The notes under the pieces were generated by a model. The model was given only the letters and a program-made list of their open reading frames with translations. It ran no database searches and had not been told where the DNA came from. A stretch of 15,718 nucleotides of DNA from a virus (Duplodnaviria; Heunggongvirae; Uroviricota; Caudoviricetes), in the IMG/VR virus record IMGVR_UViG_3300029504_000114, positions 1 to 15,718 of that record. One strand, 5' to 3'. Below are positions 3,947 through 13,098 of the stretch, piece by piece. The position numbers and the translations under genes are program-made. How positions within the stretch are numbered: the stretch's first letter is position 1; each line of letters begins with the position of its first letter.

Positions 3947-4800
3947 GCACCATCCTGAAATGGGCGGGAAATAAAACTGCCATAATGTCCGAACTGAAAA
4001 AACATCTTCCTGCTGGCCCGCGACTGGTTGAACCTTTCGCGGGTTCCTGTGCTGTGATGATGGAGACGGATTATCCCAGCTATCTGGTTGCGGATATTAA
4101 TCCTGATTTAATCAACCTCTATAAAAAGGTTGCCGCTGATTGTGAATCGTTTATATCTCGCGCCAGAGTTTTATTTGAGATCGCAAACAGGGAGGTGGCT
4201 TATTACAACATAAGGCAGGAGTTTAATTACTCAACTGAAATTACTGATTTCATGAAAGCGGTATATTTCCTGTATCTCAATCGTCACGGTTACCGTGGTT
4301 TATGTCGCTATAACAAGAGCGGGCATTTCAACATTCCCTACGGTAATTATAAAAATCCGTATTTCCCTGAAAAAGAAATTCGCGCATTTGCAGAAAAGGC
4401 CCAGCGAGCAACGTTTATCTGCGCCAGCTTTGATGAAACGCTGGCGATGTTGAAGGCGGGGGATGTGGTGTATTGCGATCCGCCGTATGACGGTACGTTT
4501 TCCGGCTATCACACTGACGGCTTCACTGAAGATGACCAGTATCACCTGGCATCTGTTCTTGAACATCGGTCATCAGAAGGACATCCGGTCATTGTTTCTA
4601 ACAGTGACACATCCCTGATCCGTTCGCTGTATCGCAATTTTACTCACCACTACATCAAGGCAAAACGCAGCATCGGTGTGGCAGCTGGCGAGGGTAAATC
4701 AGCAACAGAAATCATTGCTGTTTCCGAGCCGCGCTGCTGGGTGGGATTTGATTATTCGCGTGGCGTGGATAGTTCTGCCGTGTACGGAGTACGTGCATGA
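3943..4800 (+). CDS. dam: DNA adenine methyltransferase (Dam-like, GATC-specific family)
   Basis: Start [11 protein letters not shown] (ATGA overlap with upstream stop); DPPY catalytic motif encoded at 4477-4488; ORF 3883..4800 trimmed to the Met with the coupled start. Confidence 0.85.
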
Positions 4801-7561: not shown

Positions 7562-7795
7562 ATGCGCATTGAAATAATGATCGATAAAGAGCAGAAGATT
7601 AGCCAGTCTACCCTGGACGCCCTTGAATCCGAGCTTTACCGCAATCTGCGCCCCCTGTATCCCAAAACGGTAATTCGCATTCGCAAAGGTAGCTCTAACG
7701 GGGTGGAACTAACCGGACTGCAACTGGACGAAGAAAGAAAACAAGTGATGAAAATTATGCAGAAGGTGTGGGAAGACGACAGCTGGCTGCATTAA
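7562..7795 (+). CDS. DinI-like protein (Tum C-terminal domain-like)
   Basis: Start MRIEIMIDKEQ at 7562 with RBS GAGGTG; 77 aa; DinI-family pattern (MRIE... near N-terminus, ...WEDDSWLH at C-terminus). Confidence 0.75.
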   Translation: MRIEIMIDKEQKISQSTLDALESELYRNLRPLYPKTVIRIRKGSSNGVELTGLQLDEERKQVMKIMQKVWEDDSWLH

Positions 7796-7930
7796 GAAAC
7801 GTTGCTGGCGTCTGAACTTGCTTCTGGCGTCAGCAAGGTTGAACAACGAGCCCTTGCGAGGCGTTAGCTCTGTAGTGCATGTCTATGCCGCATGAGATCG
7901 CATGATCGTTTGAGGATCGTTTTTGCTAAG

Positions 7931-7954
7931 GCCCGCCAGAACTGGCGGGCTTTT
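7931..7954 (+). terminator. Rho-independent terminator after the tum/dinI-like operon
   Basis: GCCCGCCAG / CTGGCGGGC perfect 9-bp stem followed by TTTTG. Confidence 0.6.
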
Positions 7955-8026
7955 GCGTAGATCATGCAGGTGCATGAAAACCACTACATAAAGCGGGCAG
8001 GCGTGGCGGGGATACGAGCGCGCGCC

Positions 8027-8055
8027 TTGCCTTATATCTATTTGTTCATTAAAAT
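8027..8055 (+). promoter_or_regulatory. Candidate promoter for the retron ncRNA/RT operon
   Basis: TTGCCT (8027-8032), 17-bp spacer, TAAAAT (8050-8055); predicted start near 8062. Confidence 0.3.
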
Positions 8056-8061
8056 CATTAT

Positions 8062-8218
8062 GCTCTTTAGTGTAGGAACATTGGTTCCAGCCGGGTGATT
8101 AGCCAGGCTTAAATTTATTGTCCGGTTTAGGGTTGCGAAAGACACAGATTTCTCCTTCGCATCCCTGCCCGGGGCAGATATGCGAAGGAGAAATCTGTGT
8201 CTTTCGCTGTCTTTAGTG
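8062..8218 (+). ncRNA. Candidate retron msr-msd non-coding RNA (exact ends and a1/a2 unresolved)
   Basis: Non-coding segment directly upstream of the retron-type RT; small stem-loop GGAAC-ATTG-GTTCC (8075-8088) then a 73-nt near-perfect hairpin (8135-8207); bounded by a 9-bp direct repeat TCTTTAGTG (8064-8072 and 8210-8218). Confidence 0.55.
8135..8207. repeat. Long near-perfect inverted repeat / hairpin (candidate msd stem-loop of msDNA)
   Basis: GCGAAAGACACAGATTTCTCCTTCGCAT (8135-8162) is the exact reverse complement of 8180-8207; the centre CTGCCC-G-GGGCAG is itself palindromic. Confidence 0.9.
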
Positions 8219-8273
8219 AAGAGTCAAAGCGCTATGTAAAGTTGCATAGCGCTTTGGTTTTAAGAGGGGTTAT

Positions 8274-9209
8274 ATGCAACTAACTTCTAAAATTATCAGT
8301 AAGTTTAATTATAATAGATTAGCTTTCCAATTACTTTTAAATGAGGCCCCCAAAAAATATAAAGTTTATTATATTCCTAAACGTGGCGCAGGTTTTCGGG
8401 TGATAGCTCAGCCGACAAAGGAACTAAAAAACGTACAGAGATTTATAGTATCTTTGCTACAGCCAAAGCTGCCTGTTCATCATAAGGCAATGGCATATGA
8501 ATATAAAAAAAGTATTAAAGATAATGCATTGTTGCATAAAGATAATAATTATATTCTTAAAATGGATTTTCAGAACTTCTTTAACAAAATTAAACCTGAT
8601 ATATTTTTCTCGAAACTTGAGAACACAGGGCTGAAATTGGATTCATTTGATGAGAACACCCTACGTAATTTGCTTTTTTGGCGTCCGGGAAAAAAGAGAA
8701 GTACAACGTTGATATTAAGTGTAGGGGCGCCAAGCTCACCATTTATTAGTAATTTTGTTATGTATGACTTTGACAAGAGTCTTGATGATTGGTGCCGTAA
8801 CAATGGTATCACTTATTCAAGGTATGCAGATGATATAACTTTTTCAACTAATATTAAGGATATATTGTGCAGGGTTCCTAAGGTGGTAAAAAAAATGTTG
8901 TCGCTCCATGTTCCCGGTCTATCAATCAATGAATCTAAAACAATTTTTACATCGATGGCTCATAATCGGCACGTGACTGGTGTAACACTTACACCTCAGG
9001 GCAATTTATCAATTGGTCGCGATCGTAAAAGGATGCTGTTTGCAAAGATTCATAAATATTCTTTGGGACTCTTATCTTCCGAAGAAATAAATAAAACCAA
9101 AGGGATGATTGCGTTTGCAAATTATTTGGAGGGTGATTTTTTATTAAGGTTACAAAAAAAATATGGTTGTGAGTTAATAACTAAGTTCCTGATGGAAGGA
9201 AACAAATAA
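8274..9209 (+). CDS. Retron-type reverse transcriptase
   Basis: 311 aa; RT motifs YYIPKRGAGFRVI, LKMDFQNFF, VGAPSSP, YSRYADDITFS (YADD at 8823-8834) and the retron-typical NRHVTGV (VTG) motif; RBS AAGAGGGG. Confidence 0.9.
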   Translation: MQLTSKIISKFNYNRLAFQLLLNEAPKKYKVYYIPKRGAGFRVIAQPTKELKNVQRFIVSLLQPKLPVHHKAMAYEYKKSIKDNALLHKDNNYILKMDFQNFFNKIKPDIFFSKLENTGLKLDSFDENTLRNLLFWRPGKKRSTTLILSVGAPSSPFISNFVMYDFDKSLDDWCRNNGITYSRYADDITFSTNIKDILCRVPKVVKKMLSLHVPGLSINESKTIFTSMAHNRHVTGVTLTPQGNLSIGRDRKRMLFAKIHKYSLGLLSSEEINKTKGMIAFANYLEGDFLLRLQKKYGCELITKFLMEGNK

Positions 9210-10843
9210 TGATAAATAAAATGAATTTAGAGACTTGCTATGTTGATTTTTTAGAGTTGGAATCACATGTGATAAACGAGGATTATTTGAAGGAGTCTGT
9301 TGAGCTTCAAAAGCTAATATCTACTTTAAATGAGAGTAAGTTTCATTTAAATAAAATAGGTATACATGATTTTAAACGGATAAGAGAACTACAGATTTCT
9401 TTAGAAGATGATTTGACTGTTTTTGTCGGGGATAACGGATTCGGTAAAAGCACTATTTTGGATGCAATAGCAATTGTTTTGAGTTGGTTGAGATCAAATA
9501 TTGAAAAGGAGAGTAAGCCTGGTACTTATATTAAAAGCCATGAAGTTAATAACTCTGTTGATGTTGAGTATGCATCAATTGATGCAAATATAAAACTCAA
9601 GGACTTTAATACCAGTATTTTGATTACTAAAGCGAAAGAGGGGGCATATTATTCTAGAAATAATGAATTGTTGGAGGTAAAAAAACTTGCAAGTATTTAT
9701 AGACTTGTGAATAAATATGTTGATAATGCAAGCTTGCCTTTGATGGCATATTATTCTATTGCGCGTTCTTATATAGGCGGTGGGGTTGATAGGAAAAGAA
9801 AAAATGCTAAAACTAAAACTGTATGGTCAAAATTCGATGTGTATGATGAAATCGAGTTTGACAGAAATGATTTTACCGATTTTTTTCAATGGCTTGTATT
9901 TCTTCATAACAGAGCTTCACAAGAGAAATTGAGTGAGTCACAAACGACAATCAATGCGTTATTTTCAGATATTCAGAGTTTGAAAGCAACATTAACTCAA
10001 CTATCTGCGATTGATAATATTGATTCAACAGTTATAAAAGGTTTAGAGCTTTCGCTTAAAGAAAAATTGAACTACATGAAATCTCTGCAATCAGGAGAAC
10101 ATAAGTTTAATAATGCAGTATCACTTTATGATAGTGTTATAAATACCATTCTAAAGTTCTTGCCTGAATTTCAGTGGATTAAGCTTGTTTATGGTGATGA
10201 TGATTATAAGATTATCCTTAAAAAAGGAGAGGTTGAATTAGATATTCAACAGTTGTCTCAAGGTGAGAAAACTATATTTACTTTAGTTGGTGATTTGGCT
10301 CGACGTTTAATTTTACTTAATCCTAATTTATCTAATCCTCTATTGGGATATGGGATTGTTTTAATTGATGAAATTGATTTGCATTTGCATCCGCAATGGC
10401 AACAGACAATTATTGAGCGTTTGACATCTACATTCCCAAATGTTCAATTTGTAATTACTACCCATAGCCCACAGGTTTTATCCACTGTTAGCTCTCGTTC
10501 AGTGCGTATTCTACAGGAAGTGGAAGTAGATGGTGTTAATGATTTGATAGTGTCTCACCCCGACTATCAAATAAAAGGTGTTAGTAATCAGGATGCACTT
10601 TTATATGGAATGAGAACTGATCCTATACCCTCTACTAAAGAAAATGGTTGGCTTGAAGAATATAAAAAATTGGTTGAGCTTAATCGTTATAGCAGTGACG
10701 AGGCTCTTTTGTTAAGAGAAAAAGTTATTAAACATTTCGGATTAGACCATCCTTTAGTTCAAGAGTGTGATGATCTTATATCTGTTTTGGAGTTCAAAAA
10801 TAAGATAAATCAGCACTTTTCTGGAAGTAAGGATGTAAAATGA
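9209..10843 (+). CDS. ABC/SMC-type ATPase (PtuA-like retron effector ATPase)
   Basis: 544 aa; Walker A GDNGFGKST (9428-9454), signature-like LSQGEK, Walker B VLIDEIDLHLH, H-loop-like ITTHSP; start overlaps the RT stop (TAATG). Confidence 0.85.
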   Translation: MINKMNLETCYVDFLELESHVINEDYLKESVELQKLISTLNESKFHLNKIGIHDFKRIRELQISLEDDLTVFVGDNGFGKSTILDAIAIVLSWLRSNIEKESKPGTYIKSHEVNNSVDVEYASIDANIKLKDFNTSILITKAKEGAYYSRNNELLEVKKLASIYRLVNKYVDNASLPLMAYYSIARSYIGGGVDRKRKNAKTKTVWSKFDVYDEIEFDRNDFTDFFQWLVFLHNRASQEKLSESQTTINALFSDIQSLKATLTQLSAIDNIDSTVIKGLELSLKEKLNYMKSLQSGEHKFNNAVSLYDSVINTILKFLPEFQWIKLVYGDDDYKIILKKGEVELDIQQLSQGEKTIFTLVGDLARRLILLNPNLSNPLLGYGIVLIDEIDLHLHPQWQQTIIERLTSTFPNVQFVITTHSPQVLSTVSSRSVRILQEVEVDGVNDLIVSHPDYQIKGVSNQDALLYGMRTDPIPSTKENGWLEEYKKLVELNRYSSDEALLLREKVIKHFGLDHPLVQECDDLISVLEFKNKINQHFSGSKDVK

Positions 10844-11523
10844 AATATCTATCTAGGCAAATGCCAGGGCCTTCCGTTCTTAATAAATTTGACTATAGGA
10901 GGGATGATTGGAATTCCCTATCATCAAATGATAAAAAAGAAATATGGGAAGAAATAATAAAAATGCAAGGTAAATTATGTGCTTATTGCGAGAAAAAAAT
11001 AGAGCATCATAAAAGTGGTGGCAAAAATAAAGTTGAGAGGCATATTGAGCATTTTTACAGGAAAAGTTATTACAAAAATTTAACTTTCGAGTGGTCTAAT
11101 TTGTTTGGCTCATGTGGTGAGCCGCAAAGGTGTGGGTTTTATAAGGATAAGCAAAAATATAACGATGATGATTTAATTAAAGCTGATAGACAAAATCCAG
11201 ATGTTTTTTTCCATTTTTTGGAAAATGGTGATGTTCATATTAGAGAAGGCTTGAATGAGAAAGAACACAAAATGGCAGAGGTTACGTTAAGAGTATTTAA
11301 CTTAAACCCGTCCTCAGGAGGAGTCAAGGCGGAAAGAAGACGTGCAATAGAATTAAGCATGACATTAATAAAGGAACTGGTCGGATGTGCATCTCAGCTT
11401 ATTGAATCAGGATGTGAAATTGAAGATGTTAGATCTATGGTCTTTGATGAGTTTAAAAAGAATGTAAAAGATAGATGCTTTACCACTGCGATAAAGCATG
11501 TTTTTGAGAATAGAATGCCTTAA
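10840..11523 (+). CDS. HNH endonuclease (PtuB-like retron effector nuclease)
   Basis: 227 aa; CAYC...HHKSGGKNKVERHIEHF...NL...SCGEPQRC HNH/zinc-finger pattern; ATGA overlap with the ATPase stop indicates translational coupling. Confidence 0.85.
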   Translation: MKYLSRQMPGPSVLNKFDYRRDDWNSLSSNDKKEIWEEIIKMQGKLCAYCEKKIEHHKSGGKNKVERHIEHFYRKSYYKNLTFEWSNLFGSCGEPQRCGFYKDKQKYNDDDLIKADRQNPDVFFHFLENGDVHIREGLNEKEHKMAEVTLRVFNLNPSSGGVKAERRRAIELSMTLIKELVGCASQLIESGCEIEDVRSMVFDEFKKNVKDRCFTTAIKHVFENRMP

Positions 11524-11546: not shown

Positions 11547-12160
11547 TTAATCTATATTATATTCTGAGAAATTGATAATATGCATCCCTATCCACTGATT
11601 AAATTCATGGATTTTTTTTTGTAGAGGTACTAATTCATTTGTCACAAAAACCTTACTAGCTTTCTCCACATCCCCAAAACCCCCAACATTATTAGGCATT
11701 ATCCCCATCATCTGTGGCGGAACGCGATGTGCTGCCATCATGTCATCGCGGCTGACATTTTTGATATTCAGAAACTCATCCTTCGCCGCAACTTCTGACA
11801 AAGGGATGATCTGAAGGCCGTCCTTTTTGCCATTAGGCGAGTACATAAACAGGTTGCGGAAGTTGCCTGGACCTTTGGCGCTTTTCATCGCGTTGCGGAG
11901 ATTGTTCACATCCTCCTGATTCTGCGCGGCGTCGGTCATGTACATGATGAAGCCTGCATGGCTGCCGTTGATGTAATACTTACGGCGGAACAGCGTGGCA
12001 GACTCGTTGAGCAGGGCGGATGGAATGGCAGAAAGATAGCCTGGCAGGCCGTAGATCTCCTGGTTGATGTCCGGTTCCATCAGATGAAAAATGCTGCCTT
12101 TCGTGAACTGATACGGCTGGGTTGTCATACCGTATTGCACAAACCAGTAGGTACCCGCGA
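11547..12160 (-). pseudogene. Portal protein (P2 gpQ-like) fragment lacking its N-terminal part; 3' end possibly altered by the cargo junction
   Basis: Portal-like sequence from MTTQPYQFTKG onward (ATG at 12126-12128) toward lower coordinates; the upstream part of ORF 11547..12347 is antisense to the D' fragment and not portal-like. Junction coordinate approximate. Confidence 0.6.
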
Positions 12161-12554
12161 ACCTGCGAAGAAAGAAAGCACCACGGTGAAGCGTAAGCGC
12201 AGAACTAAGAAGCAGAAGAAAGAGCCAGAAGCGAAGCAGGGCGATTACCTGGTGGGTACGGATGAAAACGTGCTGGTACTTAATCGCACTTATGCCAACC
12301 GGAGCAACGCCGAACGAGCGGCGAAAATGCAGTGGGAACGCCTGCAACGCGGCGTTGCGTCATTCTCGCTACAACTGGCAGAAGGGCGGGCAGATCTCTA
12401 CACGGAAATGCCAGTGAAAGTCAGTGGCTTTAAACAGCCGATAGATGATGCGGAATGGACCATTACGACTCTGACGCATACCATCAGCCCGGATAACGGT
12501 TTTACGACCAGTCTGGAGCTTGAAGTGAGGATTGATGATTTCGAAATGGAATGA
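12160..12554 (+). pseudogene. Tail protein D (P2 gpD-like) C-terminal fragment
   Basis: C-terminal ~130 aa of ORF 11958..12554 (...LNRTYANRSNAERAAKMQWERLQRGV...FTTSLELEVRIDDFEME) resembles gpD C-terminus as recalled; N-terminal 65 aa of the ORF is antisense to the portal fragment. Junction approximate. Confidence 0.55.
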
Positions 12555-12863: not shown

Positions 12864-12943
12864 CGCTGCCGCCATTTTGTCGCCATCGTTAAAAAACAGT
12901 GTTTCTAACATCATGATTTTAAACAGCTTAAATTTCAGGCAAC

Positions 12944-12986
12944 AAAAAACCCATCAACCTTGAACCGAAATGGCGGGGTTGATGGG
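12944..12986 (-). terminator. Rho-independent terminator on the minus strand downstream of ybjL
   Basis: CCCATCAACC (12950-12959) / GGTTGATGGG (12977-12986) 10-bp stem; on the minus strand it is followed by a T6 run (plus-strand A6 at 12944-12949). Confidence 0.5.
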
Positions 12987-13098
12987 CTCCACAAAATGGG
13001 GACATCAAAGAAAAGCAGTGGCACTAATTAAGACTGATGCCCTGCGGAAAAGTTCTGCGGTTGTGCAAAAAAATTTCATTTTCAGGGCAACTTCAGTT

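Follow-up and report, generated by a model that had tools for sequence, protein, structure and literature searches.

A hairpin abutting a2 is a probable leaky terminator between the non-coding RNA and the reverse transcriptase gene of an Ec78-like retron

A hairpin at 8225-8256 separates the non-coding RNA (ncRNA) of an Ec78-like retron from its reverse transcriptase (RT) gene. We read it as the 3′-terminal stem-loop of the ncRNA transcription unit and as a leaky intrinsic terminator, or attenuator, and put the probability of this reading at roughly 0.6. The hairpin abuts a2, keeps its structure without keeping its sequence among related loci, is followed in the family by a U-rich tail, and has the Shine-Dalgarno (SD) sequence and the ATG of the RT gene behind it. 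Judging from the sequence, transcript 3′ ends would fall at the hairpin, termination there would be partial, and the two together would set the stoichiometry. All coordinates refer to the window, the whole 15,718-nucleotide stretch of viral DNA that was analysed.

The retron cassette and its non-coding RNA

The window retron is the type I-A (Ec78-like) retron of Escherichia coli FORC_082, carried in a P2-like prophage. Positions 7950-8300 are 100% identical to E. coli FORC_082, and the RT is 100% identical to chain E of PDB entry 9n69. The FORC_082 type I-A retron has a solved cryo-EM structure (PMC12475279), and because the strain matches we attribute 9n69 to that paper. The gene content is that of type I-A, with an msr-msd ncRNA upstream of the RT, and a PtuA-type ATPase and the PtuB HNH nuclease downstream of it (Table 1); a Pfam scan of the PtuB open reading frame (ORF), 10840-11523, returned no match. 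The RT stop and PtuA start overlap by 1 nt (9207-9211) and PtuA and PtuB by 4 nt (10840-10843), and these overlapping stop and start codons suggest that RT, PtuA and PtuB are translationally coupled. Within the P2-like prophage, the gene A/DinI-like region lies on one side of the cassette and the portal gene on the other.

Table 1. Coordinates of the retron cassette, its ncRNA and the hairpin region in the window
Feature	Coordinates	Strand	Basis and details
Promoter-like site, TTGCCT, 17 nt, TAAAAT	8027-8055	+	Consensus scan; predicted start ~8062
msr part of ncRNA	8062-8126	+	Rfam RF00170 match
a1, GCUCUUUA	8062-8069	+	Pairs with a2 in the MFE fold; branching G at 8070
msd hairpin, template of msDNA stem-loop	8135-8207	+	Inverted repeat, 36-nt arms, 94% complementary; inside RF02058 alignment
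a2, UGAAGAGU	8217-8224	+	Pairs with a1; opposing G at 8216
Hairpin	8225-8256	+	5′ arm 8225-8236 CAAAGCGCTATG, loop 8237-8244 TAAAGTTG (or 8239-8242), 3′ arm 8245-8256 CATAGCGCTTTG
Short terminator-like tail, G8257 and UUUU 8258-8261	8257-8261	+	Sequence
SD-like AAGAGGGG of RT gene	8262-8269	+	Sequence
Retron reverse transcriptase, 311 aa	8274-9209	+	Pfam RVT_1, E = 3.7e-30; FORC_082 annotation: retron St85-family RT
PtuA-like SMC/ABC ATPase effector	9209-10843	+	Pfam AAA_15, AAA_21, SMC_N
PtuB HNH nuclease effector	10840-11523	+	ptuB annotation (RefSeq) in matching FORC_082 locus

A consensus scan points to a putative promoter just upstream of the ncRNA (Table 1), and the scan of the + strand from 7700 to 8400 found no promoter-like site besides this one. 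The ATG of the RT gene, at 8274, is separated from the end of the hairpin stem by 17 nt. Since this interval is too short for a promoter and none was detected, RT, PtuA and PtuB must be expressed by transcription that reads through the hairpin.

The RF00170 (msr) model aligns in full at the 5′ end of the ncRNA with 45.9 bits, short of the gathering score of 52 (E = 3e-7). In the MFE fold of 8040-8275, a1 and a2 are paired with each other and G8070 faces G8216. The same geometry, UUA-G with 8-nt IRa1/IRa2 and priming G8, is described in the papers on Ec78/Eco7 and FORC82. It is also widespread among related loci, where, of 135 searched for a1/a2, 123 have all 8 pairs and 134 have a G before a2.

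The first base of the hairpin, 8225, comes directly after the last base of a2, 8224, and the hairpin is therefore not a2. The original prediction had allowed that it might belong to the ncRNA 3′ end, possibly as a non-canonical a2. The first part of this idea holds in that the element is probably the 3′-terminal hairpin of the primary transcript; the second does not, as the canonical 8-nt a1/a2 with its two G residues is intact and the hairpin arms pair mutually. The sole complementarity of a hairpin arm to the 5′ region, between 8049-8057 and 8255-8263, is AT-rich, 89% complementary, and located upstream of the predicted transcription start.

Structure of the hairpin and its tail

Sequence and folding agree with the element as first described: the two 12-nt arms are perfectly complementary and form a 12-bp stem with an 8-nt loop, followed by GTTTTA and then the RT ribosome-binding site. 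Its placing between the msd hairpin and that ribosome-binding site was also correct, and can be stated more exactly, as the hairpin starts one base past a2. Two additional pairs, U8237-G8244 and A8238-U8243, can narrow the loop to AAGU, giving 14 bp with a 4-nt loop, and an inverted-repeat search returned arms of 15 nt (8225-8239 and 8242-8256) that are 93% complementary.

By RNAfold, positions 8215-8270 reach -23.4 kcal/mol in an extended fold of 19 bp, and the best single hairpin at the window locus (L003 of the survey below) has an energy of -20.2 kcal/mol. The same segment, dinucleotide-shuffled 200 times, gave a mean of -9.85 kcal/mol (sd 2.29), which corresponds to z = -5.92 for the native sequence; 0 of 200 shuffles equalled the hairpin fold. 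Throughout the 15.7-kb window, the hairpin is the sole perfect stem of at least 10 bp with a loop of 3-10 nt, and mononucleotide shuffles of the whole window yielded 0-2 stems of at least 9 bp. Shuffles, controls and the window-wide stem count together rule out a chance origin.

With a stem of 12-14 bp and a loop of 4-8 nt, the hairpin has the stem-loop of an intrinsic terminator. The tail reads G, UUUU and AAG, a tract of just 4 U, and a terminator rule requiring at least 5 T in the 8 nt after the stem makes no call here. A TransTermHP-style tail score, for which the cutoff is -2.5, was re-implemented; the window hairpin passes with -3.05. In the extended fold, the tail (8257-8261) can also pair with AGAGU of a2. 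Elsewhere in the window, the DinI-like ORF is followed by a terminator-like hairpin (7927-7953, GGCCCGCCAGAACTGGCGGGC then TTTTG), which likewise has just four T and was likewise missed by the terminator scan.

The hairpin is conserved in position and variable in sequence

Viral and metagenome contigs were scanned with the conserved msr motif, and a1/a2 and the RT ORF were located for each match. The resulting survey set comprised 112 non-redundant loci, of which 98 also encode a PtuA homologue. We scored a locus as carrying the hairpin when a compact structure (<=45 nt) of -12 kcal/mol or better occurred within 60 nt after a2. By this measure the hairpin is present in 90% of the 112 loci, compared with 2.7% of windows placed inside the RT gene and 3.6% of shuffles, and the median best energy after a2 is -17.6 kcal/mol, against -6.8 and -5.6 in these controls (p about 1e-32). 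An earlier metric, the longest perfect stem with a loop of <=10 nt, gave 54% against 2-5% in controls, and misses bulged or long-loop hairpins. An earlier threshold of -10 kcal/mol with hairpins of up to 70 nt was too lax, with 14 of 40 ORF controls passing.

Across the family, the offset from a2 to the hairpin has a median of 2 nt (range 0-11, and 17 nt in locus L015), and the median distance from the hairpin end to the RT start codon is 17 nt. From position -1 to +4 relative to the 3′ end of the stem, the T frequency is 0.64-0.75; the first two positions of the stem show an excess of A, and G is most frequent at +8 to +10, counted from the stem, where the SD sequence lies. The hairpins themselves vary widely, with stems of 7-23 bp, loops of 3-14 nt and no conserved nucleotides, and their sequences are unrelated between clades. 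Within the clade AAGCCCAAGAGC...GCTCTTGGGCTTTTTT, a subclade alignment contains compensatory double changes at 9 of 10 stem pairs. A viral contig near-identical to the window (L020) differs by one A-to-G in the 3′ arm, and pairing is kept as G-U. The E. coli N10 and M37H retron variants, which occupy the same prophage slot, have the ncRNA in common with the window up to ~8223 and then diverge fully; a hairpin follows a2 in both, ATGCTCGCTGCAA/TTGCAGCGAGCAT in N10 and GGCCCGC-GCAA-GCGGGCC in M37H. In N10 (L001 4277-5260), the RefSeq ATG of the RT, at 4277, sits in the 5′ arm of the hairpin, 1 nt after a2; the true start probably lies further downstream.

At least 5 T of 8 are found at the stem 3′ end in 71 of 104 family hairpins (about 70%). 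Textbook intrinsic terminators follow a2 in close relatives (L017, GAGCCCGG...CCGGGCTTTTTTACAGG); in ECNB21-M121, GAGCCCGG...CCGGGC is followed by TTTTTTA. About 29% of family hairpins, including those of N10, M37H and canonical Ec78, have <=4 T of 8. These U-tract-poor hairpins form the more stable group (median -20.2 versus -16.5 kcal/mol, p = 7e-5), so a hairpin persists even at loci where canonical termination looks weak. Stable hairpins of this kind may have a second role besides termination. Loci with a hairpin and no U-tract include L001, L002, L016, L128 and L035.

The hairpin also extends to distant relatives. Where RTs are 45-50% identical, it occurs after a2 in 9 of 10 foldable loci; this set includes Vibrio cholerae, Shewanella benthica, Cellvibrio, Methylococcaceae and Thiotrichaceae. 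The Ketobacter locus (L006), one of the 10 distant loci folded upstream of the RT start, has no hairpin after a2.

Relationship to the small RNA family STnc400

In a permissive Rfam scan, the RF02058 (STnc400) model aligned to 8128-8265 on the + strand over its entire length (model 1-125 of 125) with 73.0 bits and E = 1.7e-14. The gathering score of 80 is not reached, which makes the window sequence a divergent relative below the curated threshold. The RF02058 consensus runs from an msd hairpin through CUAGUAAAGAGU (a2) to a second hairpin and a U/A-rich tail. The second hairpin lands on 8225-8256, and the three elements align with high posterior probability. Window and STnc400 thus have the same architecture, but the sequence of the hairpin is wholly different. 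The model also aligns to the Ec78 and V. cholerae (Vc95) loci. Rfam divides the window ncRNA between RF00170 (msr) and RF02058 (labelled sRNA), both scoring below their gathering scores.

STnc400 was found by deep sequencing in Salmonella Typhimurium, in the 196-nt interval between STM3844 and STM3845, and Northern blots detected a ~190-nt precursor, seen faintly, and a product of ~55 nt; there was no Hfq enrichment (PMC2515195). The nearby gene STM3846 encodes the St85 retron RT (PMC4569332), and from this location beside the RT gene we infer that STnc400 is the transcript of the Sen2 ncRNA. The interval from 8062 to ~8261 in the window measures 200 nt, comparable to the ~190-nt STnc400 species, whose length fits, by analogy, a transcript that begins at a1 and extends to the post-a2 hairpin. 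The Northern was made with a different retron, Sen2, in which the next gene, STM3845, is a toxin gene, whereas in the window the next gene is the RT. In St85-type retron ncRNAs, the half made up of msd, a2 and terminator appears to correspond to STnc400, and an orphan Rfam sRNA family would in this way be linked to retrons. Neither the Rfam family description nor the literature examined mentions a retron link or a function of the hairpin for STnc400.

Comparison with known systems

Canonical Retron-Eco7 (Ec78), of E. coli ECONIH5, has the same operon as the window, with ncRNA, RT, PtuA and PtuB in this order. Between its a2 and RT we found GCCCGGCGC-AAAT-GCGCCGGGC followed by CATTTTC, a hairpin placed like that of the window, 3 nt after a2 and 17 nt before the ATG, with a T4 tail. 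Its 9-bp all-G/C stem and AAAT loop have no sequence similarity to the window hairpin. The Eco7 RT is itself distant: in a phmmer comparison, the window RT matches the Ec78 RT in the PDB with E about 7e-85, against 1e-209 for itself. In the Ec78 structural papers, the ncRNA is given as 144 nt ending at IRa2, and the hairpin is unmentioned.

Retron-Eco1 (Ec86) has the same msr-msd-RT order and occupies a P2-like prophage slot beside the portal gene. There, 6 nt (ACTTTC) separate a2 from the first following ATG, leaving no room for a hairpin. We take this ATG to be the published start of the Ec86 RT; RefSeq annotates a later start. As the Ec86 gap holds no hairpin, we regard the element as a trait of the Ec78/St85-type ncRNA clade and not of retrons in general.

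The element resembles intra-operon attenuators in that a stable stem-loop and a U-run lie between a highly expressed upstream RNA and promoterless downstream genes. It also resembles intrinsic terminators in the A-rich 5′ flank and U-rich 3′ tail of the family. It differs in its short U-tract (4), and gives no sign of a regulated antiterminator structure, leader peptide or ligand sensor. The structural papers on Ec78, Eco7 and FORC82, the retron classification paper and a retron review make no mention of the hairpin or of an msd-RT terminator, and targeted literature searches for such a terminator returned no description. The element is most likely ordinary in kind, of the intra-operon intrinsic-terminator type, but undiscussed in the retron literature searched.

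A model for expression of the cassette and its alternatives

We propose that transcription starts at ~8062 and proceeds through msr, msd and a2. Most RNA polymerases would stop at the hairpin and its U4 tract, at ~8258-8262, giving a ncRNA of ~200 nt in which the hairpin would shield a2 from 3′ exonucleases. Polymerases that read through would make the RT-PtuA-PtuB mRNA, in which the RT ribosome-binding site starts 6 nt past the stem. The ncRNA, as template of the antitoxin msDNA, would then be more abundant than the message for RT and toxin, which appear to be translationally coupled. An attenuator setting the ncRNA:RT ratio was among the roles first suggested for the hairpin, and it is the one that the comparison of loci favours: the hairpin is conserved in position and variable in sequence, ~70% of the family have T-rich tails, and close relatives have textbook terminators. 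Its placement, the SD and ATG that follow it and the parallel with STnc400 point the same way.

Several observations run against a terminator. The U-tract is just 4 U after a G, and escapes the terminator rule; about 29% of family hairpins have <=4 T of 8; the STnc400 Northern comes from Sen2, with its other gene order; the RF02058 match lies under the gathering score (73 versus 80); and retron papers treat the cassette as one polycistronic unit, with no terminator mentioned. The last of these would fit an alternative in which a single cassette-long RNA is trimmed by nucleases and the hairpin is a 3′-end stability or processing element, acting as an exonuclease block or RNase III site, such that a discrete ncRNA with intact a2 accumulates. 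The same 29% of relatives, whose strong hairpins lack a U-tract and are the most stable ones, speak for this alternative, as do stems that in some cases reach 14-22 bp. Against it, a clear U-tract is seen in most relatives together with an A-rich 5′ flank, features typical of intrinsic terminators that an exonuclease block does not need, and stems of 7-9 bp (M37H, Ec78) are poor RNase III substrates. We consider it unlikely, although it is the alternative we take most seriously. A conditional gate, going beyond a passive leaky terminator, would have phage infection alter read-through or ncRNA 3′-end stability, for example where the phage acts on RNases, on Rho/Nus factors or on RNA polymerase. 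The stronger hairpins without a U-tract, about 29%, leave room for such a non-termination function; we hold the gate to be improbable. If it did operate, the retron would use transcription to adjust the balance between antitoxin template and toxin.

Two further readings place the function of the hairpin in reverse transcription or in translation. The hairpin might stack coaxially on the 8-bp a1/a2 helix, or bind the RT, and so aid priming at G8070. The 0-nt gap between a2 and the stem in the window, the short median offset in the family (2 nt) and the longer a1/a2 stems used in engineered Ec78 ncRNAs would be in keeping with this. An RT-binding element had also been suggested at the outset, and this idea fares poorly, since sequence, loop (3-14 nt), stem length (7-23 bp) and distance from a2 all vary and no nucleotides are conserved. 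Published ncRNAs stop at a2, that of Ec78 (144 nt) at IRa2; ncRNA transcribed on its own from a U6 promoter supported editing; and assembly of the FORC82 complex used a predicted ncRNA that had been cloned separately. The U6-driven and FORC82 constructs presumably lacked the hairpin. The cryo-EM maps lack both the a1/a2 region and all that lies 3′ of it, and the complexes contain no part of the hairpin. A helper role in reverse transcription therefore seems very improbable to us. Slightly less probable still is a translational switch, in which pairing of the loop and 3′ arm with the RT start would decide access to the start codon. Positions 8240-8248 (AGTTGCATA, the loop and the start of the 3′ arm) are perfectly complementary over 9 bp to 8273-8281 (TATGCAACT, at the RT start codon), and the duplex, at -13.7 kcal/mol, stands out from shuffled start regions (z = -2.97). 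The family has no such tendency, with a median z of -0.12 over 89 loci and 9% below -2, and the competing 9-bp duplex is much less stable than the 12-14 bp hairpin, which is also transcribed first.

If the leaky-terminator reading is right, Ec78/FORC82-type ncRNAs form their own short, probably abundant transcription unit of ~200 nt, and the RT and PtuAB toxin depend on read-through, a simple means of holding antitoxin template above toxin. For a defence system whose structure is well studied, the hairpin would change the transcription map. It also bears on retron engineering, where ncRNA designs usually stop at a2 and msDNA yield varies with the ncRNA:RT ratio.

The prophage slot

The stretch 7950-8031 of the window is P2 backbone common to ~1280 E. 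coli records. Homology ends at ~8031, at the -35 hexamer of the retron promoter-like site, and this point marks the left edge of a variable cargo slot. The slot holds at least 3 different Ec78-like retrons, of the window, N10 and M37H types. On the other side of the cassette, the portal-like ORF at 11547-12347 on the - strand has just 266 aa in the ORF list, and the chromosomal sRNA gene RybB (12941-13019, - strand, 105 bits) follows after a further ~600 nt. The prophage could be a remnant with its end near the portal-like ORF and RybB.
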